A stretch of DNA of 64,000 nt, taken from IMG/VR virus record IMGVR_UViG_3300013005_000037, positions 8,546 through 72,545 of that record. One strand, 5' to 3'. A program made the translations under genes and the position numbers. A model generated the notes under the pieces. It did no database searches. It was not told the origin of the DNA and saw only the letters and a program-made list of their open reading frames with translations. The DNA is from a virus (taxonomy: Duplodnaviria > Caudoviricetes). How positions within the stretch are numbered: position 1 is the stretch's first letter; each line of letters opens with the position of its first letter. Positions 16,676 through 53,251 of the stretch are shown here, in pieces.

Positions 16676-17089
16676 ATGGGAAAAATTGAAATTTTATTAG
16701 AAAAATTAGACAACACAATAACATCTTCTTTGGCTAAAAGATTAGATACATTAGATGATTTAAGTGAAAAACTTGAAGCTTCTGGAGAGGATTATGAAAA
16801 AAATCCATCGGATGAAAACAGAGATAGTTACAATGAAGTAATTGACTATGTTGAAAAAATGGAGAATGGTATTATACGAGATTTAGAAGCGTTATTAGAC
16901 AAAAGAAAAGCGGAGGAATTAGCTAAACAAACACCAGCAACACCACCAGCACCAGAAACACCACCAGTAAACCCAACCCCACCAAGTAGTGAGGAGAAAA
17001 AAGAAGGTTCTGGAATTTTGACTTTGGTTGTGGGTAGTGTTTTATTAGTTGCAAGTTTGGGGGCAATTAATTACTTCCGAAAACAATAG
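16676..17089 (+). CDS. C-terminally anchored membrane protein (coiled coil, Pro linker, TM)
   Basis: ILTLVVGSVLLVASLGAINYFRKQ. Confidence 0.75.
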   Translation: MGKIEILLEKLDNTITSSLAKRLDTLDDLSEKLEASGEDYEKNPSDENRDSYNEVIDYVEKMENGIIRDLEALLDKRKAEELAKQTPATPPAPETPPVNPTPPSSEEKKEGSGILTLVVGSVLLVASLGAINYFRKQ

Positions 17090-17123
17090 TAAACAATAAT
17101 TAATAAGTTAAAAATTAAAAAAA

Positions 17124-17462
17124 ATGGTAAACAAAAAAGTAATTTACGGAGTTGGAGCAGTAGTTGTATTAGGCGTAGCTTATTATGCAATGAAAAAAAA
17201 GAAAGGATTACCTAGTTCTTCAAGTAATGTTCCAGCAGTTTTGGCAAAAAACAATTATCCAGTTAGTTTGAGTGGAGATACACAAGGTAGTGTTTGGATA
17301 GTTATTGATGGAAAAAAATATGCGGTTGGAGGTACACAAGCTCTAATTGATTATGGTCTTGACCCAGCAAAATATCCATACACAGTACTAACACAAGCCG
17401 AGTTAGATGCAATACCAACTGACGGACAAATTAATCTAAAAGGCGTAATTCAAAAATATTAA
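17124..17462 (+). CDS. N-terminally anchored membrane protein
   Basis: VIYGVGAVVVLGVAYYAMKKKK. Confidence 0.75.
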   Translation: MVNKKVIYGVGAVVVLGVAYYAMKKKKGLPSSSSNVPAVLAKNNYPVSLSGDTQGSVWIVIDGKKYAVGGTQALIDYGLDPAKYPYTVLTQAELDAIPTDGQINLKGVIQKY

Positions 17463-17474
17463 ATTATTTTATAA

Positions 17475-17768
17475 TTGGCTTATAAAATTTTACCATATAG
17501 CTTTAGAAAGGCAAAGGACTTGGGGGTGGAAATAAAACCATCCTCAAATGTCCTTAAAAAAATTGATGTCTATAAAAAGGGTAAAAAAGTTGCTTCAATA
17601 GGTGCAAAAGGTATGAATGATTACCCAACTTATCTAGCAAAAGAAAAAAAAGGGTACTATGAAAAAGGGTACGCTAATAAAAGAAGAAAATTGTATAAAG
17701 ACCGACACGAAAAAGACAGACACGTTTTAGGTAGTGCTGGTTATTATGCGGATAAAATTTTATGGTAA
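17475..17768 (+). CDS. small basic protein, DUF5754-like
   Basis: TTG start; KKVASIGAKGMNDY..RRKLYKDRH..SAGYYADKILW resembles a family I recall from giant/polinton-like viruses. Confidence 0.6.
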   Translation: MAYKILPYSFRKAKDLGVEIKPSSNVLKKIDVYKKGKKVASIGAKGMNDYPTYLAKEKKGYYEKGYANKRRKLYKDRHEKDRHVLGSAGYYADKILW

Positions 17769-17936
17769 ATGGCAAATAAAAAGAAAATAATATTAATATC
17801 AACCGCTATTATATTAGCAGTAGGTGGGTTTGCAATTACGCAATGGTGGATAAAAAGAGTAACAAGGATTAGAGGTGGTATTGTTGTTAAACAAGAATAT
17901 ACAGAGCCTACTAATACAGAACCTTTAACAGAATAA
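17769..17936 (+). CDS. 55-aa membrane peptide absent from the ORF track
   Basis: MANKKKIILISTAIILAVGGFAITQWWIKR...; fills the gap between flanking genes exactly. Confidence 0.7.
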   Translation: MANKKKIILISTAIILAVGGFAITQWWIKRVTRIRGGIVVKQEYTEPTNTEPLTE

Positions 17937-17938
17937 TT

Positions 17939-18652
17939 ATGTTTAGTAAAGTTATAATTACATATCCAGATTTGAATAGAAGTTACGCTGAAAGTAAAAG
18001 CGTAAACTACTCTCAACCAAATATTATAAGAGGAAACACCGCTTTATTAAAATCTATTTTTTTAACAAATAAAACTTCTATAAAAAAATGGGGTACTATT
18101 TTTGAAATAGATGATTCTATTATAGCTAATTTTATAACTGCTGAAAGTGGTGGTAAAGATTTAGCTCCTAGAGGTTCTGCTCAAATTACTGGCTTAATGC
18201 AAGTTTCAACAGACACAGTTTGGGAAGTTTTAGCTAAATGGAAGTCAATGACTGGTTCTGATTTACCTTTGGAAGCAAAGGCTTATTTTGAAAAAGTATT
18301 ACCAGAAATTAAAAATTTCAATCCAAATGTTTTACCTAATTCTACTTTGAAAAATAAAATAGCAAATCTTTTGTTTAAAAATAGAGAGTTTAGTATTGCT
18401 ATTGGTACTGCAAATATTAGATGGTTGCTTGAAGCTTACTCTAACGGTGTTACTTCTCCTATCAACAAGGTTATGGTTGGGTATAATGCTGGATATTATG
18501 GAACAAAAGCAAAAATGAAAGGCAGTCCTACTACTTTAACTTTAGTAAGCAACAAATCATTGCCTTTAGAAAGTAGAAATTATCTTTTGAAGATGCTAGG
18601 GAAAGATGGATTTATTCAATTGTTTTTTGATAATAAAATGAACCTTTTGTAA
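17939..18652 (+). CDS. SLT-like lytic transglycosylase
   Basis: ITAESGG (catalytic Glu), GLMQV, YNAG. Confidence 0.82.
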   Translation: MFSKVIITYPDLNRSYAESKSVNYSQPNIIRGNTALLKSIFLTNKTSIKKWGTIFEIDDSIIANFITAESGGKDLAPRGSAQITGLMQVSTDTVWEVLAKWKSMTGSDLPLEAKAYFEKVLPEIKNFNPNVLPNSTLKNKIANLLFKNREFSIAIGTANIRWLLEAYSNGVTSPINKVMVGYNAGYYGTKAKMKGSPTTLTLVSNKSLPLESRNYLLKMLGKDGFIQLFFDNKMNLL

Positions 18653-18653
18653 T

Positions 18654-19340
18654 ATGGCAAAATATACTAATATAATTAGTTTTATTAAAGACAAAGAGGG
18701 TGGATTAAGTTCCGCAACTACCGATACTGCAAGTAGAAATCCTTCTAATTGTGGCAATGGTTCAAATGGAAAACCCTATCATACTAACAAAGGCGTTACT
18801 TGGACTACATTTAAAGGATTATCAAACAAATTAGGGTATTCAGCAAGTTGTGAAAACTTTATAAAAATGCCAAACGATATTTGGGGTAAAATTTACAAGG
18901 AAGGATATTGGAATCCAATTCAAGGCGATAGAATAAAAAATCAAGCTATTGCAAACACATTTGTAGAAATGGCGTATATGAGTGGAGTTGGAAGTAATAC
19001 TTCAACAAGGGGCGCAATACCTTATCTAAAAAACTTTTTTAAATCAAAATACAACAAAAGTTTTGACAACATTACTCAAATTGTAGATTACGTTAATGAA
19101 TTAGATGATAAAGGACAAACACCAGAATTATTTGAAAAACTTATTGACTTTAGAAAAAGCTTATATACTTCATTTAATCAACCATCTAATATAAAAGGAT
19201 GGATTAATCGTTTGGATGCTTTTTATGTTTTTAACAAGCCTTACGCATTATCAACTGCTACAAAATCAAGTATTGCGGTTGGAATTTTATTAATTGTTGC
19301 TGGAGCAACATTATATTATAAATATGGTAGAACTAAATAG
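18654..19340 (+). CDS. GH108-like lysozyme with a C-terminal TM anchor
   Basis: EGG..D, HTNKGVT, YWNPI, GWINRL; TM IAVGILLIVAGATLYYKY. Confidence 0.75.
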   Translation: MAKYTNIISFIKDKEGGLSSATTDTASRNPSNCGNGSNGKPYHTNKGVTWTTFKGLSNKLGYSASCENFIKMPNDIWGKIYKEGYWNPIQGDRIKNQAIANTFVEMAYMSGVGSNTSTRGAIPYLKNFFKSKYNKSFDNITQIVDYVNELDDKGQTPELFEKLIDFRKSLYTSFNQPSNIKGWINRLDAFYVFNKPYALSTATKSSIAVGILLIVAGATLYYKYGRTK

Positions 19341-19488
19341 TGCGGAAAAACAAGAAGTAAAACAAGAGGTAAATTCTCAATTACATAAACACCTATCTAC
19401 AATTTTTGTTGTGGTAGGCATTGTGTCTTTTACTTTAGGAGCAATAGTAAATTACTATACAATTAGAAGATTAAACGGTAAAGCATAA
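19324..19488 (+). CDS. small membrane protein
   Basis: ATG at 19324; TM IFVVVGIVSFTLGAIVNYY. Confidence 0.6.
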   Translation: MVELNSAEKQEVKQEVNSQLHKHLSTIFVVVGIVSFTLGAIVNYYTIRRLNGKA

Positions 19489-19907
19489 TGGAAATAAGTG
19501 GCAAAATATTAGACAGTACAAACGAACCGTTATATTTGGCTAACATTACTATTATAACTGGAAGTCAAACCAATAAATTTGGAACAGTTGCAAATGAAAA
19601 TGGAGAATTTAAGTTAGATGGAGATATTATAAACGCAGATTCACAATTTAAAATTAGCTATCAAGGTTTTAGACCTCAATTTTTTAGAGCAAGTGAATTA
19701 CAAGGTAGAACAATAAAACTAGAGGAAGATATAGTTGGACTAGGGGAAGTAATTATACGACCAAAAGAAAAACCAAAAAATATAATTGCATTAAAGCAAG
19801 ACAACAACATAAAACAACATTTACAAAAGCATAAAATTGCTTACGCTGGATTAGGAAGTATAGTAGCAGTAGCACTAATAGCAATATCAATTAAAAAATT
19901 AAAATAA
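19488..19907 (+). CDS. CarboxypepD_reg-like domain protein with a C-terminal TM
   Basis: ISGKILDSTNEPLYLANI..GTVANENGEFKL..ISYQGF..LGEVII, as at the N-termini of Bacteroidota TonB receptors. Confidence 0.72.
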   Translation: MEISGKILDSTNEPLYLANITIITGSQTNKFGTVANENGEFKLDGDIINADSQFKISYQGFRPQFFRASELQGRTIKLEEDIVGLGEVIIRPKEKPKNIIALKQDNNIKQHLQKHKIAYAGLGSIVAVALIAISIKKLK

Positions 19908-19908
19908 A

Positions 19909-20517
19909 ATGGCAAACGAATTTGACGATTGGAGAAGTAAGTACGATACTATGACTAGTAGTGAGCAAGTGGAATATTATAATGAAATAGAAGAATTATA
20001 TCCAGAACAAGCGCATTATAACTATGAAAATGTAAAAATAGTATTAGAATTAGGTAAAAAAAATGCAGATGTTTTAGAGTTCGGAACGTGGAAAGCAGAT
20101 TTATGTGAAACCGCTTTGAAAGAATATGAAATTAATAGTTGGACTGGAATAGAAATATGCAAGTCAGCTATTGATAAAACAAGATGCAAAGACCCAAAAT
20201 TAAAATATATTTTTCCATCAAAATTTGATTGGTTCAATGATAATGATAGACCAAAATGTGATATTGTAATTGCTACTCACTTTATAGAGCATTTAAGCAA
20301 CGAGCATTTTAACGCATTAGCAAAATATTGTGAAGGAGTAGAATACATTTACTTTGAAGCACCATTAAGCGATAATGGAGAAGATTGGAGTGGTTACTTT
20401 GGTACACATAAATTATTTTATGGTTGGAATCAAGTAGTCGAAGTTATGGCTCAAAATAATTTTGAGGTAGTTCATAACTTAAATCAAGGTAAAATTTTTA
20501 AAACAATTAAAAAATAA
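19909..20517 (+). CDS. class I SAM-dependent methyltransferase-like protein
   Basis: VLEFGTW; WTGIEI; DIVIATHFIEHL. Confidence 0.65.
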   Translation: MANEFDDWRSKYDTMTSSEQVEYYNEIEELYPEQAHYNYENVKIVLELGKKNADVLEFGTWKADLCETALKEYEINSWTGIEICKSAIDKTRCKDPKLKYIFPSKFDWFNDNDRPKCDIVIATHFIEHLSNEHFNALAKYCEGVEYIYFEAPLSDNGEDWSGYFGTHKLFYGWNQVVEVMAQNNFEVVHNLNQGKIFKTIKK

Positions 20518-20521
20518 AATT

Positions 20522-20845
20522 ATGGAAGCACCAGCAGTAGCAACACCAGATGTAGCACCAGCACCAGCACAAGCAGTAGCACCACCAGCAGTAGCACCAG
20601 CACCTCAAATGGCAGATGGTGGAGCAATGGATTCAGTTGCAAAACCAAAAATGAATACAAAAGATATTATCATTAGCTTATTGCTAATTACTGTATCTAT
20701 TTACGGAATTGTTTATTACAGAAAAGCAATCAAAACTCTTGACGAACAAATAACGCCAGAAGAATTTGATAACATTGCTGGAATGGTAGATGAACACGAT
20801 GTGAACTTGAAAAAAGCTTTGGGTGGTAAATATAAAAAAATGTAG
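20522..20845 (+). CDS. membrane protein with a Pro/Ala-rich leader ending in MADGG
   Basis: APAVAP repeats; MADGG; TM IIISLLLITVSIYGIVYY. Confidence 0.72.
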   Translation: MEAPAVATPDVAPAPAQAVAPPAVAPAPQMADGGAMDSVAKPKMNTKDIIISLLLITVSIYGIVYYRKAIKTLDEQITPEEFDNIAGMVDEHDVNLKKALGGKYKKM

Positions 20846-20847
20846 TT

Positions 20848-21264
20848 ATGGGAACGTTTGGAATAACAGATTTTGATAGTAGTAATGCTCTTTGTAAAGA
20901 TGGAACAATAGATAAAAATAACCCATCAAATCCTTGTGTTAATAATGGAGGCGTTAATTTATTTGGTGGAACAAATAAAATTCATTCTCCATTTGGCGGT
21001 AAAAAACCAATAGGGTATATTGTTCCAAAACTTAATACAAATCAACCAGAAACATTTACAAAAGTGCTTTGTAATGATGGAAGTACACAAATGGTAGGAA
21101 GTAATCCACTTGGTGGTAGAGTAGATGTACCTTGTAGAAGTAATGGTGGAGTTTCAGAAAATCAATCACTACCCGAAACATTTCTACAAAAATACAAAAC
21201 CAACTTACTAATTGCTGGAATAATAGTATTAAGTTACTTCGCATACAAAAAATTTAAAAAATAA
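20848..21264 (+). CDS. C-anchored membrane protein with a duplicated Cys motif
   Basis: LCKDG..PCVNNGGV and LCNDG..PCRSNGGV; C-terminal TM. Confidence 0.7.
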   Translation: MGTFGITDFDSSNALCKDGTIDKNNPSNPCVNNGGVNLFGGTNKIHSPFGGKKPIGYIVPKLNTNQPETFTKVLCNDGSTQMVGSNPLGGRVDVPCRSNGGVSENQSLPETFLQKYKTNLLIAGIIVLSYFAYKKFKK

Positions 21265-21267
21265 ATT

Positions 21268-21849
21268 ATGGGAACTTACAAATTAAAAGAAGATATTGTA
21301 TGGGGTTTTTTACCAGATACTAATGGTAAGCCAAACATAATCTTTAAAAAAGGAGATATTATACAAGGGGATGAAAAAGAAGTATTCGTTTACAACCAAA
21401 TGATGAAAGGAGTTTCAGCAAAACCTACTGTTGAAGGAGCTAGGGTAGAAACCGCAGATGGATTGGCTTTTTCACCACTTACAAATCTTGAAAAAATATC
21501 AGAAAGTCAAACAGTAGCAGTGCAATATAAAACCCCAACACAAGCAGAGCCAGTTTCGGATTTAAAATATTATACAAGTGCTAATTTTTTAAAAAGAGCA
21601 AGTGTTTCAATTATTCCAGTTGGTTTAATTGGTGTATATTGTTACAAGAAAAAATTTAGTTTATTAAAAAGTGCATTATTAGTTTCTATACCTATTATTG
21701 CTATAACTGGAATACAATATGCAGTTATGGGTGGAGGTAAAAATTCTTATTGGGGTATTTTTACACCACCTAGCACAAAAGCAAATTATAATGCACAATT
21801 AAGAGAAATAGAATTGAGTACTGGTATGCCACAAAAAGGCTATAAATAA
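21268..21849 (+). CDS. two-TM membrane protein
   Basis: Two hydrophobic segments in the C-terminal half. Confidence 0.68.
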   Translation: MGTYKLKEDIVWGFLPDTNGKPNIIFKKGDIIQGDEKEVFVYNQMMKGVSAKPTVEGARVETADGLAFSPLTNLEKISESQTVAVQYKTPTQAEPVSDLKYYTSANFLKRASVSIIPVGLIGVYCYKKKFSLLKSALLVSIPIIAITGIQYAVMGGGKNSYWGIFTPPSTKANYNAQLREIELSTGMPQKGYK

Positions 21850-21857
21850 ATACAATT

Positions 21858-22202
21858 ATGGCAACTATAAAAGATAAATGCTACAAAACCGCAAAAGCTA
21901 CTTATGATGTTTTTCCTTCGGCAAGAGCATCACAGTCTATTGCAAAATGCAGAAAAAAATCTGGAGTAGTAAATAAGTCAAAAGAAGGTTTAAGTTTAAA
22001 AAGGTGGAACGCAGAAAAATGGATTGATACATTAACTGGAAAACCTTGCGGTGCTGGTGGTAAAAAAGAATATTGCAGACCAACAAAAAAAGTTTCATCT
22101 CAAACGCCTAAAACTGTTCAAGAAATTAGCAAGTCAAAATTAAAAGCTAAACAGAATGAAAAGTTAAAAGTAGGAATGGGTAAAAAAGTTAAGAAAATTT
22201 AA
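21858..22202 (+). CDS. small basic Cys-containing protein (DUF5872-like)
   Basis: LKRWNAEKWID..TGKPCG..YCRPTKKVSSQTPKT. Confidence 0.6.
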   Translation: MATIKDKCYKTAKATYDVFPSARASQSIAKCRKKSGVVNKSKEGLSLKRWNAEKWIDTLTGKPCGAGGKKEYCRPTKKVSSQTPKTVQEISKSKLKAKQNEKLKVGMGKKVKKI

Positions 22203-22212
22203 AAATAATATT

Positions 22213-22515
22213 ATGTCACAAATAAGTAGCACACAAGAACTTATTCGCAGAGATACGAATGGTAATCCATTAGTAAGAGAATTACAAAGTAAAGAGGAAA
22301 TTGCTAAAAGAAAGAATGAAGAAAATTCTAAAATTAAATTTCCTTTAAAATCAACAATATTATTGTCAGCAATTCCTTTATCACTTGCTTATTACTCATA
22401 TTACAATAAATATAGTTTAGCAAAAGGTATAGCAGTATTAGTAATAGGAACTCCAGTAATTATATACGGTACATTAATTTTATACGCTACTATTGGCAAT
22501 AAAAAATTTGTTTAA
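22213..22515 (+). CDS. two-TM membrane protein
   Basis: Hydrophobic C-terminal half. Confidence 0.65.
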   Translation: MSQISSTQELIRRDTNGNPLVRELQSKEEIAKRKNEENSKIKFPLKSTILLSAIPLSLAYYSYYNKYSLAKGIAVLVIGTPVIIYGTLILYATIGNKKFV

Positions 22516-22526
22516 AAATAATAATT

Positions 22527-22619
22527 ATGAAAGATAAAAGAATATTATATATTGGATATGCAATTGTAGGTTTATATTTTTATTTTAAATATAGACAAAT
22601 TGAAAAAATGAAAAGTTAA
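22527..22619 (+). CDS. 30-aa TM peptide absent from the ORF track
   Basis: MKDKRILYIGYAIVGLYFYFKYRQIEKMKS*. Confidence 0.55.
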   Translation: MKDKRILYIGYAIVGLYFYFKYRQIEKMKS

Positions 22620-22642
22620 AAAAAAATTAAAAAAATAAAATT

Positions 22643-22780
22643 ATGGCAAAAGCGGTAAATGGGTATTTCAAAGCAATGTTGGAAGCCAAAAAGAAAAAAT
22701 CATCATCGTTTGTTTATAACGGTAAAACTTATGTAGCTTCAAAAACAAAGACTGGAGTTATGGTATATAAAGCTAAATAA
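22643..22780 (+). CDS. 45-aa basic peptide absent from the ORF track
   Basis: MAKAVNGYFKAMLEAKKKKSSSFVYNGKTYVASKTKTGVMVYKAK*. Confidence 0.6.
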   Translation: MAKAVNGYFKAMLEAKKKKSSSFVYNGKTYVASKTKTGVMVYKAK

Positions 22781-22791
22781 AACCAATACAA

Positions 22792-23154
22792 ATGGATTTT
22801 TATAAATTAACAAAAGACACGGTAGTTTCAAAATACAATCCAGAAAAGAAAAATGTTTATGGAGGTGTAGGTGTAGAATTTGTTAAATATTTAAAAAAAG
22901 GAGATATTGTTTTAGTAAACAGAGTTGAACCAAACGACATTGAGAAAGATTTAATAAAAGCGGAAAACTATTTTATTAGTAGAAATAATTTTATTTCAGT
23001 TAGTCAATATACTAATCAATTAACCGACAGTATAAATACAAAAGATATTATTACATTTGCTTATGAAAAAGCAAAAGAACCAAAAAGCATAGTTATAATA
23101 GGGGTCTTAATTGCAATTATTATTGGAACAAAGGCATTAATAAAAAATAATTAA
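22792..23154 (+). CDS. C-anchored membrane protein
   Basis: TM IVIIGVLIAIIIGTKALI. Confidence 0.7.
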   Translation: MDFYKLTKDTVVSKYNPEKKNVYGGVGVEFVKYLKKGDIVLVNRVEPNDIEKDLIKAENYFISRNNFISVSQYTNQLTDSINTKDIITFAYEKAKEPKSIVIIGVLIAIIIGTKALIKNN

Positions 23155-23418
23155 ATGATACAGAAAAATAAATTACTGGTATATGGAGTAGTGGCATTAT
23201 TAGCCTATTACCTATACGATAGAAACAGAAAAATGAGATTAGTTTCAGACTTAAAAGATGGAGCTAATACTGATTTTGTAGAAGAAGTTGCGGATATAAA
23301 ACCAAACTGTCGTCAAGAATGGGTACAAAAAATAGGTAGCAAAACAAAATTTCGTAGTGCAGAAGCTTTAGCAAAATCTCAAAATGATTACATTTCATCT
23401 TGTCTAAAAAATAAATAA
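23155..23418 (+). CDS. N-anchored membrane protein
   Basis: TM LLVYGVVALLAYYLY. Confidence 0.68.
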   Translation: MIQKNKLLVYGVVALLAYYLYDRNRKMRLVSDLKDGANTDFVEEVADIKPNCRQEWVQKIGSKTKFRSAEALAKSQNDYISSCLKNK

Positions 23419-24063
23419 ATGAATTTAAACCAAGTAACTTACGGAAACCCAACACGAGAAAATAAAAAGTTTATTGAGGAAAAAGGTTTTATGGATAGCC
23501 TTTTTGTTCAGTTTGACGAGGATTCATTTCCTCTTAATGATTCAGAATTAGTTAAAGATGAACTAAATGAAATTGTTGATTATGTAAATTCAATAAGCGA
23601 TGAAGAAAACAAATCTTTTTTAACTAGGTATAAATCATACGATAGAAGTTTAATTCAGACCATTGCTACTACTTTTAAACAGAAAGGTATTGATGTTGAA
23701 AGTATATGTGAAGATATTATTGATGATACCAAAAATTTAATTTACAAATTAAAGTATTTTTACCAACGACCAAGACCTTTTCAATTAGCACAATACTACA
23801 AATTAAAATTATTTCCTTACAATAGTTTTAGTTCTAATACACCATCCTATCCTTCTGGACACACCTTACAAGCTTATGTTATTTTAAATGTAATAGCTAG
23901 TAAGCACCCTAATCAATTTCAATTTTGCAAAGAGATGATTGACGATATTGCGTACAGTAGATTGTATTTAGGATTACACTACCCAAGTGATAATGATTTT
24001 TCAATAGAAATAGCCAAGAAAATTTTACAACACCCAGATTTCACTAAAAAATATGAAATATAA
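23419..24063 (+). CDS. PAP2-superfamily phosphatase
   Basis: KYFYQRPRP (C1), PSYPSGH (C2), SRLYLGLHYPSD (C3). Confidence 0.88.
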   Translation: MNLNQVTYGNPTRENKKFIEEKGFMDSLFVQFDEDSFPLNDSELVKDELNEIVDYVNSISDEENKSFLTRYKSYDRSLIQTIATTFKQKGIDVESICEDIIDDTKNLIYKLKYFYQRPRPFQLAQYYKLKLFPYNSFSSNTPSYPSGHTLQAYVILNVIASKHPNQFQFCKEMIDDIAYSRLYLGLHYPSDNDFSIEIAKKILQHPDFTKKYEI

Positions 24064-24077: not shown

Positions 24078-24464
24078 ATGAAACACCACGAATACGACCT
24101 ACAAGTTGCGGTTTGTAGATATTTGAACTACCAATACCCAGATGTAAATTATATGTCTGATACTATTGCTAATTTAAAATTAACAAAGACACAAGCCATT
24201 AGGAATAAAAAAATTCAAAAAGATGGATTTAAAACGCCAGATTTAATTATTTTTGAGCCAAATAATACATTCATAGGATTATTTATTGAACTAAAGATTG
24301 ACACACCTTTTAAAAAAGATGGTACAATTAAAGCTTCAACTAACGACCATTTAAAATTACAATTAGAAACTATTGAAAAACTTAATAAAAAAGGTTATTC
24401 AGCACATTTTAGTTGGGGATTTGATATGACAAAAGAAATTATTGATAATTATTTAAACCAATAA
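24078..24464 (+). CDS. VRR-NUC-like PD-(D/E)xK nuclease
   Basis: EYDLQ..PDLII..FIELK..Q....L...GY. Confidence 0.75.
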   Translation: MKHHEYDLQVAVCRYLNYQYPDVNYMSDTIANLKLTKTQAIRNKKIQKDGFKTPDLIIFEPNNTFIGLFIELKIDTPFKKDGTIKASTNDHLKLQLETIEKLNKKGYSAHFSWGFDMTKEIIDNYLNQ

Positions 24465-24465
24465 T

Positions 24466-29595: not shown

Positions 29596-29596
29596 A

Positions 29597-41891: not shown

Positions 41892-41902
41892 AAAATAAAA
41901 TA

Positions 41903-44515: not shown

Positions 44516-44527
44516 AAATAAAATATT

Positions 44528-44788
44528 ATGAATAAATTAGAAATAGTTGTCGGAAGTTTACAAATATCAAAAGATGGTGTAATAATACTTGTTATACCAA
44601 AAGATGCGTGTGCTATTGATACATTAGCTTTAGCAAATGCAACGCCTACTGCTTTAATTTTTAATAAATATTTGGCTAACTTTACACCAGTATTTAATAC
44701 ACCTTTGTCAAGTTGTGTAGATTCAACTAATACTGTGTTTACACCAAGTACGTTTATAGCTTTTGCGGAAGCTAATTTAGGATTTTAA
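44528..44788 (+). CDS. stand-alone copy of the fibre 3 N-terminal domain
   Basis: MNKLEIVVGSLQISK..FAEANLGF vs MIKLEIVTGSLQISN..FAEANLGF. Confidence 0.75.
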   Translation: MNKLEIVVGSLQISKDGVIILVIPKDACAIDTLALANATPTALIFNKYLANFTPVFNTPLSSCVDSTNTVFTPSTFIAFAEANLGF

Positions 44789-44799
44789 AAAAAAAGATT

Positions 44800-46830
44800 A
44801 TGATAAAATTAGAAATAGTAACTGGGAGTTTGCAAATATCAAACGGAGGTTCTGTAATATTAGTAGCACCGAAAAATTCGTGTGCAATTGATGTTTTAGC
44901 TGTATATGATGCAATACCGTTTATAGTTATATACAATAAGTATTTAGGAAACTCAACAGTTGTTTTCAATCAGCCTTTAGCTAATTGTGAAGATAGCACT
45001 GGAACACCATTTACAGTAAATACATTTATTGACTTTGCGGAAGCAAATTTAGGATTTGATGCTGGTGGCGGTGGCGGAGGAAGTTCTCCATTTGAGTATA
45101 ATGCTAATGTAACTGGTATTCAACCAGTTTTAGGAACAAATGATGCTTCTGGAACTTATGCTACAATTGGAGGAGGTTATTGTAATATTGCATCTTCAAG
45201 TTGTTCAACAATTGGTGGTGGTAGAAGTAATAGTGCTTCTAATAGTGATTCAACTGTTGGTGGTGGTTTTGCTAATGTTGCTTCAAGTTATTGTTCAACA
45301 ATTGGTGGGGGCGTATCAAATACTGCTTCTGGTTATAGTTCAACAATTGGTGGTGGTGGTGGTAATACTTCTAGTGGTAATTGTTCAATAATTGGTGGGG
45401 GCGTATCAAATACTGCTTCTGGTTATAGTTCAACAATTAGTGGGGGTTATAGTAATAATGCTTCTGGAGCTAGGTCAACAATTGGCGGTGGTTATTCAAA
45501 TATTGCTTCTTGTCTTTCTTCAACAATTAGTGGTGGGGGTTGTAATACTGCTTCTGGTTGTTGTTCAACAGTTAGTGGCGGTCACAGTAACGTTGCTTCT
45601 GGTATTACTTCAATTATTGGTGGTGGAAATTGTAATACTGCTTCTAATATTTCTTCAACAATAGGTGGTGGTAGTTTTAATATTGCTTCAAATATTGGTT
45701 CAACAGTTGGTGGTGGTCAAAGTAACACTGCTTCTAATATTTTTTCAACAGTTGGGGGTGGTGGTGGTAATATTGCTTCAAATTATTTTTCAACAGTTAG
45801 TGGTGGTTATTGTAATTATGCTTCTGGAAGTAAAGCTATAATTGGCGGTGGTCAAAGTAACAGTGCTTCTAGTTTTTATTCAACAATTGGTGGGGGTCTT
45901 TGTAACACTGCTTCTAATGTTCATTCAATAATTGGTGGTGGTCTTTGTAACACTGCTTCTTCTTGCTATTCAACAGTTGGAGGTGGATGGTGTAATACAA
46001 CAAATGCAAGATTTTCTACAATCAATGGAGGTCAAAGAAATATAATTCAATCGCCTACAAACGAGTGTTGTTCTCTTGGAGTTACAATTGGAGGTGGTAT
46101 AGGTCATAATACAACTGGTGGTACATTAAACGCTACTACTGGAGATTTAACTGGTGCAATTACTTGTTGTAATGCTGGAAAACTATCTACTATTGGTGGT
46201 GGTTTTAGAAACTGTGCTACGGGTGTGACTTCAACAGTTGGGGGAGGTAATCTTAACTTTGCTTCTGGTGGTTTATCAACTATTGGTGGGGGTAATGGTA
46301 ACTTTGCTTCTGGTGGTTTTTCAACAATTGGGGGAGGTAATCAAAATATCGCTTCTAGTGCTATGTCAACTATTGGTGGAGGTAATTTAAATCAATCTTC
46401 TGGTTGTTATTCAACAATTGGAGGAGGTTATGTGAACATTTCATCTGGTGCTTATTCAACAGTTGGTGGTGGTTATAATAATACTGCTTCTGGTGCTTGT
46501 TCAATAGTTGCTGGTGGTAAAGTAAATGTTGCTTCTGGTATTTACTCAACAGTTGGAGGTGGTTATAGTAATATTGCTTCTGGTTCTACTTCAACAATTG
46601 GTGGTGGTTTTCAAAATACTGCTTCTGGTTATCGGTCTGCAATATTAGGTGGATTTAGCAACACAACAAATTCTTGTGCTTGTGCAATGATTGTCGGTAG
46701 TAATATAACTGCGGACAGAGTATGTGCTACATTTGTAAATAACTTATCAATTAAAAACATTCCAACTGCTAGTGCTGGTTTACCAAGTGGGTCAGTTTGG
46801 AAAAATGGAAATGTATTAAATATAGTTTAA
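44800..46830 (+). CDS. fibre/adhesin 3
   Basis: Same 14-aa repeat; shares the CC-containing insert with fibres 1 and 2 and the C-terminus with fibre 2. Confidence 0.8.
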   Translation: MIKLEIVTGSLQISNGGSVILVAPKNSCAIDVLAVYDAIPFIVIYNKYLGNSTVVFNQPLANCEDSTGTPFTVNTFIDFAEANLGFDAGGGGGGSSPFEYNANVTGIQPVLGTNDASGTYATIGGGYCNIASSSCSTIGGGRSNSASNSDSTVGGGFANVASSYCSTIGGGVSNTASGYSSTIGGGGGNTSSGNCSIIGGGVSNTASGYSSTISGGYSNNASGARSTIGGGYSNIASCLSSTISGGGCNTASGCCSTVSGGHSNVASGITSIIGGGNCNTASNISSTIGGGSFNIASNIGSTVGGGQSNTASNIFSTVGGGGGNIASNYFSTVSGGYCNYASGSKAIIGGGQSNSASSFYSTIGGGLCNTASNVHSIIGGGLCNTASSCYSTVGGGWCNTTNARFSTINGGQRNIIQSPTNECCSLGVTIGGGIGHNTTGGTLNATTGDLTGAITCCNAGKLSTIGGGFRNCATGVTSTVGGGNLNFASGGLSTIGGGNGNFASGGFSTIGGGNQNIASSAMSTIGGGNLNQSSGCYSTIGGGYVNISSGAYSTVGGGYNNTASGACSIVAGGKVNVASGIYSTVGGGYSNIASGSTSTIGGGFQNTASGYRSAILGGFSNTTNSCACAMIVGSNITADRVCATFVNNLSIKNIPTASAGLPSGSVWKNGNVLNIV

Positions 46831-47324: not shown

Positions 47325-48143
47325 ATGAAAAAGATTTTTTTTAATTCTTCTTTGCCAAGAGCTGGTTCAACACTCTTGTCAAATTTAATTGCTCAAAACC
47401 CAGACTTTTATTGTACCCCTACCTCTGGATTAGGCGATTTAGTATTAAATGCTAAAAACACTTATGCTCATTCCCAAGCTATATTGTCGCAAGACAAAGA
47501 AGCTATGGAAAGAGCATTTTTAGGTTTTTGTAGAGCTGGTATGCAAGGTTTCTTTAATAACCTTACACCAAAACAATTTATTGTAGATAAAAGCAGAGAT
47601 TGGGGTATTCACTATAACTTATTGAATATGCTAAACGAAAATCCTAAAATCGTTTGTATGGTTAGAGATGTTAGGTCGGTTTATTCTTCAATGGAAAAAA
47701 ACTTTCGTAAAAACCCACATAGAGAAAGTCATATTCAAAACGCACCTCAATTAGTTGGTACTACATTAGACAAAAGAATAAATATTTGGGCAGATGGAGT
47801 TCCAGTAGGTGTTTCAATGGACAGATTAAAGGATTGTATTCAGCAAGGTATAGCAAAAAAAATGTTGTTTATACGTTATGAAGATTTAATGCAAAATCCA
47901 GAAAACGAAATGAAGCGTTTATACGAGTATTTTGAGTTGCCTTACTACGAAGCACACGATTTTCAAAATATAGCTCAATTAACCCACGAAAACGACCTTA
48001 TTCACGGAATTTATGGCGACCATACGTTAAGAGATAAGTTTGAAATGAAGCCAGATGATTATCAAGAAATATTAGGATATGAATTATCAAACAGTATAAA
48101 AAATACTTATAAATGGTTTTATGATTATTTTGGTTACGTTTAA
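47325..48143 (+). CDS. PAPS-dependent sulfotransferase
   Basis: 5'-PSB loop SLPRAGSTLL; 3'-PB RDVRSVYSS; IRYEDL. Confidence 0.88.
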   Translation: MKKIFFNSSLPRAGSTLLSNLIAQNPDFYCTPTSGLGDLVLNAKNTYAHSQAILSQDKEAMERAFLGFCRAGMQGFFNNLTPKQFIVDKSRDWGIHYNLLNMLNENPKIVCMVRDVRSVYSSMEKNFRKNPHRESHIQNAPQLVGTTLDKRINIWADGVPVGVSMDRLKDCIQQGIAKKMLFIRYEDLMQNPENEMKRLYEYFELPYYEAHDFQNIAQLTHENDLIHGIYGDHTLRDKFEMKPDDYQEILGYELSNSIKNTYKWFYDYFGYV

Positions 48144-48151
48144 AATTTTAT

Positions 48152-48190
48152 TATATTTGAACCGAGAAACTTTAAAATAACAACAAAATG
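48152..48190 (+). promoter_or_regulatory. -7 promoter element plus conserved 25-nt leader, copy 2
   Basis: TATATTTG at 48152-48159; leader at 48166-48190 identical to 38076-38100. Confidence 0.65.
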
Positions 48191-48670
48191 ATTTACAATT
48201 TAATCGGACAACCTCATTCTGGAAAAACTACTTTAGCAATACATTTAAAAACTGTTTTAGATTTAAACAATCCTAATCGAAAAGCATTTATAATTGATGG
48301 AGATTTTTTGCGTAAAATACTAAACAATAAAGACTATTCAGAAAATGGTCGTAGAGATAACGTTAGTAAAGCATACGCTATTGCAAAATATTTAGATTCA
48401 GATGATTCTCACGATGTAATCATAGCGGTAATTTCTCCTTTTTTAGATTTGAGAGAAGAATTTAAACTTACTGCCGATGTAATTGAAATTTATATCCATA
48501 CAAAAAATATTAGAGGTAGAGAAAAATTCCACGTTGAAAATTTTGAAAAACCAGAAATGGACTTTATTGAAATTGACACAACCGATATTGACGAATTAAG
48601 CTCATTAAACGAACTCATAGAAAAAATTCAATCAAAAAAACATATAGACAATGGAATTGATAAAGAATAG
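48188..48670 (+). CDS. cysC: adenylyl-sulfate (APS) kinase
   Basis: GQPHSGKTT; IDGDFLRK; YSENGRRDN; AVISPF; FEKP. Confidence 0.82.
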   Translation: MIYNLIGQPHSGKTTLAIHLKTVLDLNNPNRKAFIIDGDFLRKILNNKDYSENGRRDNVSKAYAIAKYLDSDDSHDVIIAVISPFLDLREEFKLTADVIEIYIHTKNIRGREKFHVENFEKPEMDFIEIDTTDIDELSSLNELIEKIQSKKHIDNGIDKE

Positions 48671-48965
48671 CTCGACCACAAGTATTTTACAAGATTTAAT
48701 TTTACAAGGGAGAAAAATATTAATGAAAAAGCCAGAAGGTAATTATTTCATTCAAATTAGATTTAATCACAATGATATTGATGGCACAAGAAGATGGAGG
48801 ATTATAATTGATGGGATAGAATTTCAAGTTTCAGAAATAATGATAAATATACCTTGCAAAACAGAAAGTGAATTGTACGAAGATTTTAATGGGTACAAAC
48901 ATAATATAGTTACAGATGCAACAAACGAAGTTATTTTTGAAAAATCAATAGCTTATTTAAACTAA
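48651..48965 (+). CDS. hypothetical phage protein
   Basis: WRIIIDG..VSEIMINIPCKT; the true start may lie further downstream. Confidence 0.55.
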   Translation: MELIKNSSTTSILQDLILQGRKILMKKPEGNYFIQIRFNHNDIDGTRRWRIIIDGIEFQVSEIMINIPCKTESELYEDFNGYKHNIVTDATNEVIFEKSIAYLN

Positions 48966-48982
48966 AAATAAAAAATTAAAAA

Positions 48983-49858
48983 ATGGTACAAAATGTGATA
49001 TTTCAAATAGATGGCGGACTTGGAAAGTCAATTATGGCTACTGCAATTCTAAAAGTAATTAAAAAAGAATACAAAAAATCAAATATAATTGTAGTAACTG
49101 GATACCCAGATGTGTTTGTTGGTAATCCAAACGCAAATAAAGTATTGCACCCATCACAAGCGGTTGGTTTCTATAAAAGTTACATACAAAATAAAGACAC
49201 AAAAGTTTTTATTTCAGACCCTTATATGACAAGCGACTTTGTAACAGAAAGCGGACACTTGTTGAAAATTTGGTGTGATATGTACGGATTAAAGTATAAT
49301 GGAGAATTGCCAGAGATATTTTTATCTAAAGCGGAAAAAGAATATTTTGCTCCTTTTTATAAGCTAGACAAACCAATTATGGCTATTCAGCCAAACGGAG
49401 GTGCGGTTGGGCAACCTTTAAAATATAGTTGGACAAGAGATTTACCAGCTTCTACTGTAAATGAAGTAATCAGTCAATTTAAAAATGATTATGCTATTTT
49501 GCATATTAAAAGAGATGACCAATTAACTTACGAAAATACAATTGGCGCACTAGATGGATGGAGGAGTATAGCTATTATGCTTACACTTTCTACTAAAAGA
49601 CTTATGATTGACAGTAGCTCAATGCACATTTGTACTGCTTTAAATTTACCAAGCGTAGTTGGGTGGATAGGAACTAATCCTAAAGTTTTTGGATATGATT
49701 TGCACAAGAACATTGAAGCAAACCAACCAACAAAAGAAATTAATGTAGAAAGCAATAGCTACCAAAAGCATTTGTTATATGAAGATATTTCTACATTTCC
49801 ATACGATAATTTTACGGAAGTTTTTGATACGCAGTCAATAATAAATGCCTTGAAATAA
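48983..49858 (+). CDS. GT9-like (heptosyltransferase-fold) glycosyltransferase
   Basis: IDGGLGKSIMAT..KKEY..IIVVT; MIDSSSMHICTALNLPSVVGW. Confidence 0.78.
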   Translation: MVQNVIFQIDGGLGKSIMATAILKVIKKEYKKSNIIVVTGYPDVFVGNPNANKVLHPSQAVGFYKSYIQNKDTKVFISDPYMTSDFVTESGHLLKIWCDMYGLKYNGELPEIFLSKAEKEYFAPFYKLDKPIMAIQPNGGAVGQPLKYSWTRDLPASTVNEVISQFKNDYAILHIKRDDQLTYENTIGALDGWRSIAIMLTLSTKRLMIDSSSMHICTALNLPSVVGWIGTNPKVFGYDLHKNIEANQPTKEINVESNSYQKHLLYEDISTFPYDNFTEVFDTQSIINALK

Positions 49859-50461: not shown

Positions 50462-50463
50462 TT

Positions 50464-50814
50464 ATGGAAAATTATAATAATGTTGGTGGAGCAGATGCTT
50501 TAATAGGTGGGGGTGGTCAAATTATTTCTAGTGTAATAAATGGATATTTTGCCAAAGGAGAAGCTAAAAAGGCATTAAAACTACAAGCTGAAATATCACA
50601 ATTGACTTTAGCTCAACAAAAGACATTAGAGGAAAGACTGCAAGATGTTCAGTCTGAAACTGAAAGGCAAGGAATGATTTATCAATTTCTAGCGGTACAG
50701 AATAATAATGAAATGCTAAATAGAGCACAAGGTAAGAGATACACTTCTTATATAGTTTTGGGTGTAGGAGTTACAATTTTAGCATTGGTAGTATTAAAAT
50801 TAGCAAAAAAATAA
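50464..50814 (+). CDS. C-anchored membrane protein (YNNVGG motif), related to 30195
   Basis: Likely start ATG at 50464 (MENYNNVGG..); coil; TM. Confidence 0.72.
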   Translation: MENYNNVGGADALIGGGGQIISSVINGYFAKGEAKKALKLQAEISQLTLAQQKTLEERLQDVQSETERQGMIYQFLAVQNNNEMLNRAQGKRYTSYIVLGVGVTILALVVLKLAKK

Positions 50815-50816
50815 AA

Positions 50817-51164
50817 ATGGACAAAAACACGAAAACACTATTCATTACATTAGGAGGTGCGTTACTTCTTATTTATTTATTAAGACCAAAGAGTGATAAA
50901 AGCAAAAAAGGACTTTTGAATGTAAAATATGCTGAACCAAAGCAAGTTTCTGACAATGAAAAAAAATTGAAAGAAAATGCAGTTATTGGATTACAAGCTA
51001 TGCGTGAAGCTATTGATAGCAAAGAGAGTAAAAAGGAATTAGATAAATTAAGTTCAATGATTTTGCAAGATTATGGCGTAAAAGTTATGATTAACAAACA
51101 AACTGGATTGCTACGAGCTATGTCTAAAGATGGAAAAGTAATTTCACAAGAAACAAGAGATTAA
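50817..51164 (+). CDS. N-anchored membrane protein
   Basis: TM LFITLGGALLLIYLL. Confidence 0.7.
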   Translation: MDKNTKTLFITLGGALLLIYLLRPKSDKSKKGLLNVKYAEPKQVSDNEKKLKENAVIGLQAMREAIDSKESKKELDKLSSMILQDYGVKVMINKQTGLLRAMSKDGKVISQETRD

Positions 51165-51613
51165 TGCCTATATTCGCCCCAACCATAACCAATTATCCAA
51201 ATGGAGTTGTAACTGTCGCAAGTAACGATGCAACCCCTTATAGTTCTATTATTCAATCGATGGGTAGCTTTATATATGGAGTAAACGAAATGTATTTAAA
51301 AGCGAATGATAATAGTCAAATACTTCAAAGCTATCAATTTAAAAGGTATGATGTAAACGGTACATTAGAATCGTTTGTAGATGCTCCGACAATAGACCCT
51401 TATCAATTTCAATCTTCATTATTTTTTAAATTAACAAAAGACAATGTTGTACTTGATGGAAGAACAAGTTTAGATTTTAGTTTATTGCCTAGTGAATCTT
51501 TGTATATGATTATTTATACCACGCAACTAGCAAATAGAGATTTAGTTCCAAGAACAAATTTTTTTAATAACGATTTTTTCAATTTATTTAATGATTACAA
51601 AGACTGCATATAA
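51164..51613 (+). CDS. minor capsid-like paralogue of 28420
   Basis: Aligns with the core of 28420: Y..I/M....Y.V...Y....Q....L....D.NG....PTIDPYQ.Q......DG.T. Confidence 0.65.
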   Translation: MPIFAPTITNYPNGVVTVASNDATPYSSIIQSMGSFIYGVNEMYLKANDNSQILQSYQFKRYDVNGTLESFVDAPTIDPYQFQSSLFFKLTKDNVVLDGRTSLDFSLLPSESLYMIIYTTQLANRDLVPRTNFFNNDFFNLFNDYKDCI

Positions 51614-52067
51614 TAAAGCACCGATTAATAAAATAAAAACTGAAAATAGAAATTGTACTATTTCAAAACTTGTAACTGGAGATTTAATTAAAACAAAGGG
51701 TCAAAAATATCCTTTGATTTATCATTATGGAATAGTAGAGAAAAATTTAGATGGTCTTTTTATCATACACAACCACCCAGACAAAATAAACTCAAATGGT
51801 GGTAATACAGTAAGAGAACCTTTAGAGAAATGGATTAAAAATAGAGATGTAGTTTCGGTTGAACAAACTGATTTAAAACTAGAAGATATTGAAAAAATAT
51901 ATCAAACATTAAAAATGCACAAATACGATTTTATAAATTTCAATTGTGAGCATTTTGTAAATTTTGCAAAAGACAAAAGTTATGTAAGTCCGCAAGTGTT
52001 GAGGTGGACATCAGTAGCTTTAATAGGATTAGCTATTTATTTTTTATTAAAAAACAAAAGAATATGA
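51591..52067 (+). CDS. LRAT/PLAAT-like (permuted NlpC/P60, H-box/NC) enzyme with a C-terminal TM
   Basis: HYGI..IIH..YDFINFNCEHF; TM at the C-terminus. Confidence 0.8.
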   Translation: MITKTAYNKAPINKIKTENRNCTISKLVTGDLIKTKGQKYPLIYHYGIVEKNLDGLFIIHNHPDKINSNGGNTVREPLEKWIKNRDVVSVEQTDLKLEDIEKIYQTLKMHKYDFINFNCEHFVNFAKDKSYVSPQVLRWTSVALIGLAIYFLLKNKRI

Positions 52068-53251
52068 ACCCAATATCAAGTCAAATAAATTTAAAAGTTG
52101 TTAATAATACTGCACTGCCACAACCAGTTTCTATATTGCAAATTGTACCAAATAGTGATAGTGCAAATAATAGTAATTTCCTTTATGAATTTAATTTTAC
52201 TGGACAATCTTATGTTGGAGTAACTAGTGTAAATGCCTATATTTCTAACACATCAAATCCTAGCATAATTGCGTATAATGCACCAGTTTTATCTCAAAGT
52301 ATTATTGGAGTTGTTGATGCGTTAAATTCGCTTAATCAAGGTCTTTTTTCTTATTCTGGCACTACAATATACGTTTCATCTAATTTCTATATTTATTCAA
52401 ATTTAAGTATTTCTGGAAGCTCTATTTTTGGAACAACTGGAATAAATCCACAAAATATTGTAATAGATAGTGCTGGAAATATCTATACCGCCAATACATC
52501 TTCAAGTGATGTAAGTAAAATTACACCTTCGGGAGTATCAACTATTTTAGGGGCAACTGGAACAAGTCCTATTGGAATTACAATAGATGGAGCTGGAAAT
52601 ATTTATACTGCAAATAATGTTTCAAATAACGTTAGTAAAATTACACCATTAGGGGTTTCTACTATTTTAGGAACTACTGGAAATAACCCTATTGGAATAA
52701 CAATAGATGGAGCTGGAAATATTTACACTGCAAATAATACGAGTAATAATGTTAGTAAGATTACACCATTAGGCGTTTCTACTATTTTAGGCACAACTGG
52801 AAATAACCCTATTGGTATAACAATTGATAGTGCTGGAAATATTTATACTGCAAATAACGCTTCTGTCGATGTTAGTAAAATTACACCATTAGGGGTTTCT
52901 ACTATTTTAGGAACTACTGGAACAAATCCAAATGGAATAACCATTGATAGTGCTGGAAATATATATACTGCAAATAATGGAAGTGATGATGTTAGTAAAA
53001 TTACACCATTAGGCGTATCAACTATTTTAGGTAGTACTGGAAATAGTCCTCTTGGAATAACCATTGATAGTGCTGGAAATATATACACTGCAAATAACTC
53101 TAGTTTTAATGTTAGTAAAATTACGCCTTTAGGAGCATCAACTATTTTAGGTAGTACTGATTCGTTTCCAACTGGTATTACAATAGATAATTTTAATAAT
53201 ATTTACACTTCAAATTTTGGAGCAGATAATGTAACGGTAATAGTGCAATAA
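52064..53251 (+). CDS. spike/receptor-binding candidate: N-terminal beta-domain plus a 7-bladed NHL-like propeller
   Basis: Likely start ATG at 52064; seven 40-aa repeats P.GITID.AGNIYTAN....VSKITP.G.STILG. Confidence 0.8.
   Translation: MNPISSQINLKVVNNTALPQPVSILQIVPNSDSANNSNFLYEFNFTGQSYVGVTSVNAYISNTSNPSIIAYNAPVLSQSIIGVVDALNSLNQGLFSYSGTTIYVSSNFYIYSNLSISGSSIFGTTGINPQNIVIDSAGNIYTANTSSSDVSKITPSGVSTILGATGTSPIGITIDGAGNIYTANNVSNNVSKITPLGVSTILGTTGNNPIGITIDGAGNIYTANNTSNNVSKITPLGVSTILGTTGNNPIGITIDSAGNIYTANNASVDVSKITPLGVSTILGTTGTNPNGITIDSAGNIYTANNGSDDVSKITPLGVSTILGSTGNSPLGITIDSAGNIYTANNSSFNVSKITPLGASTILGSTDSFPTGITIDNFNNIYTSNFGADNVTVIVQ

Follow-up and report, generated by a model that had tools for sequence, protein, structure and literature searches.

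We analysed a 64,000-nucleotide stretch of DNA (the window; all positions below refer to it) that comprises bases 8546-72545 of the IMG/VR virus record IMGVR_UViG_3300013005_000037, a linear and complete genome of 72,545 bp. With a probability of roughly 0.65, its gene content points to an uncultured lytic or episomal virus of freshwater Bacteroidota, whose particle is most likely tailless and icosahedral with a protein-rich lipid membrane inside. We infer the taillessness, the internal membrane, and the coat role of a jelly-roll protein from gene content.

A packaging ATPase and a single jelly-roll protein

The following genes carry the argument.

24899-25948, + strand: acidic protein of 349 aa whose C-terminal tail is basic; its gene is translationally coupled to that of the ATPase
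25948-26769, + strand: packaging ATPase of the A32/P9/B204 type (FtsK-HerA superfamily), 273 aa (motifs, fold, profile match)
28420-29115, + strand: single jelly-roll protein, 231 aa, candidate major capsid protein (AlphaFold2 fold, conservation)
51164-51613, + strand: 149-aa jelly-roll paralogue, candidate penton or second capsid protein (hhalign to the profile of the 231-aa protein)

The ATPase carries a Walker A (GRKGCGKT) and a Walker B (LLLIED) motif and consists of one ASCE domain plus a C-terminal helical extension, with no nuclease domain, membrane helix, or VirB4 N-domain. It matched no Pfam or PHROG family, and its PDB sequence match was limited to the P-loop. We drew 66 related loci from IMG/VR and built an alignment of 24 diverse homologues. 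Among the fold matches of the AlphaFold2 model (predicted local distance difference test, pLDDT, 89.4), B204, a viral packaging NTPase, came first; in Foldseek, B204 chains scored E 4e-10 to 3e-8 and the next family 3.9e-6. VirB4 scored below B204, the margin over HerA and VirB4 being modest (2-2.5 Z units). These features place the protein among the A32/P9/B204-type packaging ATPases of the FtsK-HerA superfamily and not among conjugative ATPases of the VirB4/VirD4/TraD type. Performing hhalign comparisons, we find that the ATPase alignment matches the packaging ATPase of Thermus phage P23-77 (85% probability, E 6e-6, 183 columns), whereas the match to PRD1 P9 covers an 18-residue P-loop only. 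As judged by these profiles, the ATPase is closest in sequence to those of the P23-77 type (Helvetiavirae) and not to those of PRD1, PM2, or the nucleocytoplasmic large DNA viruses (NCLDV).

The 349-aa protein adjoins the ATPase in 63 of 64 related loci and is kept in a 132-kb relative (C9) and in the genomes G006 and G003. Neither Pfam nor PHROGs gave it a family; it may serve as a packaging accessory or act at the DNA ends.

We modelled the 231-aa protein in AlphaFold2 together with 120 of its homologues. The model (pLDDT 88.6) has an N-terminal helix, a disordered linker, and one eight-stranded beta-sandwich (residues 50-215), and is thus a single, not a double, jelly roll. Fold searches returned jelly rolls only (nepovirus, comovirus, and picornavirus coats; TNF/C1q, nucleoplasmin, and carbohydrate-binding modules); the P23-77 capsid structures VP16 and VP17 were absent from the lists of matches. 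The model shows the fold only, and we infer the capsid role. No double jelly roll, the mark of Bamfordvirae, was found: the candidate is single-barrelled and the conserved core holds no other conserved soluble protein of suitable size, although structure models were made for two proteins and a double jelly roll could lie in another open reading frame (ORF).

The 149-aa product aligned with the profile of the 231-aa protein at 97.7% probability (hhalign, E 1.5e-12). A major copy and a second, weaker profile match in a smaller ORF were present in all five IMG/VR relatives compared (64-101 kb), as well as in the 132-kb C9. Of those five, four had the second match in an ORF of 147-158 aa; in G003 it lay within a 349-aa ORF. 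The sequence-only reading of positions 16676-53251 had proposed an A32/FtsK-HerA-type ATPase without a nuclease domain and a beta-rich capsid candidate with a paralogue, and both proposals held. It had also invoked kinship with PRD1, PM2, sphaerolipovirus, and NCLDV-type virions. The pairing of ATPase and jelly roll stood, but closeness to PRD1, PM2, and NCLDV did not: P23-77 is nearer, and the barrel is single.

Relatives of the 231-aa protein numbered 1820 among 90% clusters, most of them on contigs of 60-73 kb; at 50% identity there were 537 representatives, nearly all of 200-270 aa. Every NCBI homologue cluster is named 'hypothetical protein'. It is the most conserved large gene of the lineage and also the most sampled. 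Major capsid proteins are usually the most conserved and most sampled genes. PDB sequence searches with the ATPase, the jelly-roll profile, and the profile of a conserved zincin-like protein (31609-32394, see below) gave P-loop or chance matches only.

The module is kept across a freshwater lineage and recurs in a small provirus

Members of the lineage span 64-132 kb and are common in lake metagenomes. The 3.2-kb stretch from the ATPase to the capsid candidate was nearly complete and near-identical in 18 lake-water metagenome runs from 2018-2024. The largest relative compared, C9, is a contig of 132,486 bp from a Sediminibacterium metagenome-assembled genome (MAG), and its zincin-like gene is 74% identical to that of the window. 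Because its GC content is uniform (~32% throughout), it is syntenic with this genome over some 100 kb, and both its ends are inverted arrays of the 11-base repeat GGGAATTTCGT, C9 is a complete larger relative and not a piece of a chromosome.

Comparing this genome with C9, a 100-kb genome, and a distant 64-kb genome, we find a deep core that comprises the ATPase with its 349-aa neighbour, the jelly-roll protein and its small paralogue, the zincin-like protein, two membrane proteins with a tail anchor, RecT, and segments of the polyvalent proteins. The most distant genome, G003, still has the ATPase, the 349-aa and jelly-roll proteins, the zincin-like protein, and both anchored proteins.

We also searched the jelly-roll profile in 401 genomes of the phylum of the Sediminibacterium MAG. 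In a complete 4.38-Mb chromosome (G046), the gene just before that of a 239-aa jelly-roll homologue (hhalign 94.5%) encodes a 183-aa ATPase homologue (hhalign 98.3%, E 1e-14). The two belong to an integrated element of ~19 kb (G046:C1 ~2,760,000-2,779,300; L103 11985 to L104 11264) that further carries genes for a replication initiator and a tyrosine integrase, a ParB-like gene, a GH108-like lysin, possible spikes, small membrane proteins, and a protein that shares the zincin-like domain. By its gene content, this element looks like an undescribed small temperate tailless phage. Here the module stands at the size and in the layout of classical small tailless phages, which is the best indirect argument that it is a virion module. 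We considered a 305-aa protein of the provirus, with a repetitive Gly-rich N-terminus and no PDB or family match, as a double jelly roll; by its N-terminus it looks more like a spike.

The principal alternative is that the jelly-roll protein does not form the shell. It would then be a penton, a spike, a cement protein, or a membrane-bound part of the nucleocapsid, the coat being unrecognised or the particle pleomorphic or enveloped. This we consider unlikely. No other conserved soluble protein of 250-500 aa remains in the core, the 231-aa protein outranks every other large gene in conservation and sampling, and the small provirus also has its jelly-roll gene directly after the ATPase.

Neither core protein matched anything in 50,697 GenBank phage records (tblastn, E 1e-3; chance matches only at E 10), and we found no published description of the lineage in the full-text literature, in line with the sequence-only reading, which did not recognise the virus as a described isolate. 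A distant relative lies on a 201,909-bp NCBI MAG contig (L013/L108), with four jelly-roll paralogues near the ATPase and, upstream, an ORF exceeding 2080 aa and a Kinase-PolyVal protein of 1209 aa; it represents an even larger member or else one that has integrated.

The genome is complete and its probable host is a Bacteroidota bacterium

In a comparison over the whole record, the last 123 bases were the exact reverse complement of bases 1-123, giving perfect inverted terminal repeats (ITRs) of 123 bp. IMG/VR assigns the record to its inverted terminal repeat class.

63878-64000, no strand: right ITR, 123 bp, reverse complement of genome bases 1-123

The GC content is ~30% along the entire genome. 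About 96 genes on the + strand run from the left end up to position 53251, and about 20 genes on the - strand run inward from the right end. The genome is thus complete, with transcription converging from the two ends; at 72,545 bp it is over 64 kb, as had been expected. Since the genome is complete, with its ITRs, the question of which genes the rest of the contig holds can be answered.

The protein-primed family-B polymerase profile PF03175 gave no match at E <= 1 in this genome and three relatives, and no protelomerase-like large recombinase was recognised in this genome or the 132-kb relative. The genome encodes an initiator of the Phg_2220_C type. We found no tRNA genes in the genome. The ITRs of the two genomes, 123 bp here and arrays of GGGAATTTCGT in the 132-kb relative, are entirely unlike in sequence. 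The Bacteroidota promoter consensus TTTG-N17-21-TAnnTTTG occurs 6 times genome-wide against 5.7 expected, which is chance level and no evidence of its use. A TTTG-N-TAnnTTTG match lies inside the right ITR at 63932-63962 (- strand), mirrored in the left ITR, and points inward ~45 bases before the first gene.

A Shine-Dalgarno-like core lies ahead of 2 of the 117 genes, where random windows gave ~8, and adenine stands at -3, -6, -12, and -13 in 74, 66, 81, and 69% of the genes. Adenines at these positions promote initiation experimentally in Flavobacterium johnsoniae, whose phylum does not use Shine-Dalgarno sequences (PMC6847099). Relatives are binned in Bacteroidota MAGs. Given this start-codon context, the MAG associations, and the ~19-kb integrated relative, a predicted Bacteroidota host is well supported.

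Tailed-phage hallmark genes were not found

Every ORF of more than 250 aa was scanned with Pfam, and most of these were also run singly against PHROGs. The exceptions (the NHL gene, the three fibre genes, and some genes of the arms) went into a batch scan against PHROGs that covered the other 97 ORFs. The families listed in the batch scan comprised HNH endonucleases, RecT, endolysins, a replication initiator, and glycosyltransferases. Among the ORFs, neither the Pfam matches nor the PHROG families listed included a large terminase (TerL), portal, HK97, or tail family. Six-frame searches with PF03237 (Terminase_6N), PF05065 (Phage_capsid, HK97), and PF04860 (Phage_portal) gave no match at E <= 1 in this genome and four relatives; control genomes did match, while homologues too remote for the profiles could escape. 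The large terminase, portal, and HK97-fold capsid that define Caudoviricetes were thus not found.

The large left-arm genes are not hidden tailed-phage hallmarks, because the 365-aa and 569-aa genes are unconserved, without a counterpart in the 132-kb relative, and the others encode a CobS-like ATPase with its partner and proteins with DUF5661 and ArdA. The sequence-only reading had seen no terminase, portal, HK97 capsid, tape measure, or tail gene, and it would have given way to such genes elsewhere on the genome, to another fold of the 28420 product, or to an ATPase of the VirB4/TraD group. The hallmark genes were not found in either set of searches, the 28420 product folds as a jelly roll, and the ATPase does not group with VirB4/TraD.

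These searches bear on a second alternative, a very divergent tailed phage whose terminase, portal, HK97, and tail genes escape the profiles and whose small ATPase has another purpose. A Uroviricota label on protein clusters, the presence of RecT, HNH endonucleases, ArdA polyvalent proteins, and fibres, all common in tailed phages, and the fact that phage polyvalent proteins mostly co-occur with portal-terminase systems (PMC5512222) would fit it. Five genomes without a match to the three hallmark profiles, nothing in any ORF of more than 250 aa, and left-arm genes that are unconserved in C9 make it quite improbable. We also know of no tailed phage with a B204-type packaging ATPase.

Membrane proteins, wall enzymes, and fibres surround the module

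The ATPase and both jelly-roll genes lie within a block of 66 + strand genes (16676-53251), whose other features are as follows.

16676-24063, + strand: small membrane-protein block with SLT (17939), GH108 (18654), a methyltransferase-like gene, and PAP2 (23419) (Pfam, transmembrane predictions)
from 17939, + strand: SLT transglycosylase (Pfam SLT)
from 18654, + strand: GH108 with a C-terminal membrane anchor (Pfam Glyco_hydro_108)
23419-24063, + strand: PAP2 lipid phosphatase (Pfam PAP2)
24078-24906, + strand: VRR-NUC-like nuclease and DnaA-C-like helix-turn-helix protein, upstream of the packaging pair (weak Pfam matches)
26968-27435, + strand: M15 peptidoglycan peptidase (Peptidase_M15_3, E 1.8e-16)
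29209-30750, + strand: small tail-anchored membrane proteins of 128, 198, 107, and 75 aa, after the capsid candidate (C-terminal transmembrane segments)
31609-32394, + strand: 261-aa protein with a beta-rich N-terminal part and a zincin-like HExxH...DExEAD domain (motif)
33328-38817, + strand: ~17 more small proteins, most with a single membrane helix at the N or C terminus (hydropathy)
38835-46830, + strand: three genes for fibres of 1018, 870, and 676 aa with head-type Gly-rich repeats, and one gene of 86 aa (UspA1-type repeats)
51591-52067, + strand: PPPDE/LRAT-type papain-like peptidase, 158 aa, with a C-terminal membrane anchor (Pfam, motifs)
52064-53251, + strand: NHL-repeat beta-propeller protein (NHL, SBBP, and Vgb_lyase repeats)

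We counted membrane segments in the 66 genes by two criteria. A Kyte-Doolittle 19-mer of >= 1.6 was present in 35 of them and an uncharged 17-mer of >= 1.5 in 29, of which 27 had one segment only; 13 segments were N-terminal and 13 C-terminal. By eye, ~7 more genes were borderline for a membrane helix, which gives an upper bound of ~40. Outside the block, 7 of 51 genes had such a segment, and shuffling the proteins gave 7.7. The enrichment is real. The figure of 'more than 40' small single-pass membrane proteins in the sequence-only reading was an upper bound, the count being closer to 30-40, although the enrichment that it described stood. Its membrane-anchored wall enzymes and fibres were borne out, with SLT, the C-terminally anchored GH108, and M15 by Pfam and with UspA1-type repeats in the three fibre genes.

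Several of these genes are strongly kept. The 128-aa and 75-aa tail-anchored proteins occur in 34 and 33 of 36 full loci, respectively, and also in the distant G003. The PAP2-superfamily phosphatase, which is soluble, is kept in 57 of 64 loci, one of the best-conserved genes, and lies shortly before the packaging genes; lipid or undecaprenyl phosphates may be its substrates in membrane acquisition or wall passage. The 261-aa protein is 45-74% identical across the lineage, and its zincin-like domain recurs in the small provirus of G046 (hhalign 50%, E 1.6e-4). It had no Pfam, PHROG, or PDB match, and the ESM Atlas gave weak metallopeptidase leads only, with no other informative neighbours for it or for the jelly-roll protein; it is a candidate virion metallopeptidase. 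In the third fibre gene, UspA1_rep scored E 1.6e-13 (Pfam). The first two fibre proteins share their N-terminal 45 residues, and the fibre genes are kept in C9 and G006. The NHL propeller is a candidate spike or receptor-binding protein. The 158-aa peptidase (Peptidase_C97 E 4.3e-7, LRAT 0.003) has the His and NCEHF Cys motifs and is 51-54% identical to the C9 and G006 copies.

A linear plasmid or transfer element, with the ATPase driving DNA transfer and the jelly-roll and fibre proteins as surface structures, is very improbable: Pfam and PHROG scans of the ORFs gave no relaxase, type IV secretion system, or coupling-protein family, the 273-aa ATPase has no VirB4 N-terminal or transmembrane domain, three wall hydrolases accompany a strictly conserved jelly-roll pair, and the near-identical stretch in the lake-water runs is joined by relatives in the IMG/VR viral collections.

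Comparison with known tailless viruses

The closest parallels are with P23-77 and the Halopanivirales (Matshushitaviridae, Sphaerolipoviridae, and Simuloviridae; Helvetiavirae). Shared features are a small homologous packaging ATPase, single jelly-roll capsid-type proteins in two versions, and, as in P23-77, the order of ATPase, capsid gene(s), and a run of small membrane proteins and lysins. Sphaerolipoviruses too have linear genomes with ITRs, according to the International Committee on Taxonomy of Viruses profile (PMC12643093). Unlike the Halopanivirales (16-31 kb), this genome has 72.5 kb, its lineage 64-132 kb, and the predicted host is a Bacteroidota bacterium. Halopanivirales encode two single jelly-roll capsid proteins side by side after the ATPase; here there are two paralogues of unequal size, the second being small (149 aa) and 22.7 kb away instead of adjacent. 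Membrane proteins are several-fold more numerous, and polyvalent proteins, three long fibres, and a RecT/exonuclease module are further differences.

Like PRD1 and the Tectiviridae, the virus has linear double-stranded DNA with ITRs, two gene sets that converge from the ends, a small packaging ATPase encoded next to the candidate capsid protein, numerous small membrane proteins, a predicted virion transglycosylase, and putative vertex fibres. In contrast to them, no family-B polymerase (PF03175), recognisable terminal protein, or double jelly-roll gene was found, the genome is five times larger than that of PRD1, and the ATPase matches P9 at the P-loop only. STIV and STIV2 (Turriviridae; archaeal, ~17 kb) differ by their double jelly-roll capsid, and the ATPase here has an extra C-terminal helical part of ~55 residues.

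Salisaeta icosahedral phage 1 (SSIP-1, JN880423), a membrane-containing icosahedral phage, resembles this virus in its comparatively large genome, but that genome is circular and this one is linear. Its host belongs to a related group. Searching SSIP-1, PRD1, and P23-77 with hidden Markov models (HMMs) of the jelly-roll, ATPase, and zincin-like proteins gave nothing significant (SSIP-1 all E > 0.5, HMMER). The genomes of PRD1, P23-77, and SSIP-1 measure 14.9, 17, and 43.8 kb, and that of PM2 ~10 kb.

A proposed particle and the evidence against it

In the tailless, membrane-containing particle that we favour, the 231-aa jelly-roll protein would build the capsomers, and the 149-aa paralogue, the NHL propeller, and the three fibres would make up the vertices. 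An inner membrane derived from the host would be populated or shaped by the small anchored proteins and the PAP2 phosphatase; the 29-35 single-pass proteins of the structural block and the conservation of PAP2 point indirectly to such a membrane. The ATPase and the coupled 349-aa protein would pump linear DNA through one vertex into a preformed, membrane-containing procapsid. Virion-borne SLT, GH108, and M15 enzymes may open the wall at entry or exit, and large polyvalent proteins (ArdA and others) may be packaged and delivered together with the DNA.

Several observations weigh against this picture. The particle, its lipid, and its protein make-up are predictions from the genome. The jelly-roll profile aligned with P23-77 VP16 and VP17 at hhalign probabilities below 1% and showed no sequence similarity to SSIP-1 or PRD1 in the HMM search; to our knowledge, no shell of a single jelly-roll protein holds 72-132 kb of DNA. 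The genome has ITRs, yet the ORF scans gave no recognisable polymerase or terminal protein. Small ORFs matched 45 further weak PHROG families beyond those listed, and with two proteins modelled an HK97 fold could hide in another ORF. The ESM Atlas cluster taxonomy is Uroviricota for the families of 28420-29115 and 31609-32394.

If the picture is true, a common freshwater lineage of 64-132 kb raises the size limit of tailless virions in bacteria about threefold and is a further agent of mortality of lake Bacteroidota. Automatic taxonomy appears to file two of its protein clusters under tailed phages; if this is general, such viruses are miscounted. The ~19-kb integrated relative suggests one family that extends from small proviruses to large linear genomes. 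The lineage would also offer a bacterial, possibly one-gene, single jelly-roll system for testing the origin of double jelly-roll capsids.

A bolder extension, which we advance tentatively and hold to be more probably wrong than right, has two parts. Large, icosahedral capsids with a membrane lining, for 64-132 kb of DNA, would be built from one single jelly-roll protein in true hexamers with a small vertex paralogue; this would represent a long-postulated ancestor of the two-gene (Helvetiavirae) and fused double jelly-roll (Bamfordvirae) capsids. Maturation would be adenovirus-like, with a Gly-Gly-specific cysteine peptidase cutting packaged polyproteins into basic core peptides and anti-defence effectors.

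Polyvalent proteins and the genome arms

The arms, which lie outside positions 16676-53251 of the sequence-only reading, contain the following features.

3268-16592, + strand: large polyvalent-type proteins (1192, 921, and 400 aa), CobS-like ATPase and partner (Pfam, PHROGs)
3268-6846, + strand: 1192-aa polyvalent-type protein with DUF5661 (Pfam/PHROGs)
7950-10891, + strand: CobS-like (MoxR-type AAA+) ATPase, 455 aa, and 524-aa partner (Pfam/PHROGs; kept in relatives)
12616-15381, + strand: 921-aa polyvalent-type protein with ArdA (Pfam/PHROGs)
15390-16592, + strand: 400-aa polyvalent-type protein (Pfam/PHROGs)
53346-55197, - strand: RecT annealase (E 8e-32) and PD-(D/E)XK exonuclease (weak PDDEXK match), start of the inward right arm

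The concept of polyvalent proteins, most of which in phages are found alongside portal-terminase systems, has been described (PMC5512222). In the three proteins of the left arm, hydrophobic-x-x-Gly-Gly motifs occur 21 times in 2,513 residues, against 31 times in the 17,885 residues of the other proteome; shuffling the three gave 4.8 on average and 11 at most. A basic module, ..EDYEVRY.KPRPSR.GY.G.RKF.GGG, is present in three copies, each ending in such a motif. The PPPDE (C97) family includes deSUMOylases that cut after Gly-Gly. An idea suggested by these motifs is an adenain-like maturation, in which the anchored PPPDE peptidase would release core peptides and ArdA.

The gene order of the VRR-NUC-like and DnaA-C-like genes is also seen on the 201,909-bp contig. 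Directly after the fibres, the genes at 47325-49858 resemble, by eye, those of a sulfotransferase, of an APS kinase with the P-loop GQPHSGKTT, and of a GT9-like glycosyltransferase. Identity to their counterparts in the 132-kb relative is 59-68%, and the first gene matches only phrog_27463 (function unassigned). Three genes of the NUMOD4/HNH(-AP2) homing-endonuclease type lie at 2719-3258, 55194-55775, and 56411-56953, one of them immediately before the 1192-aa gene.

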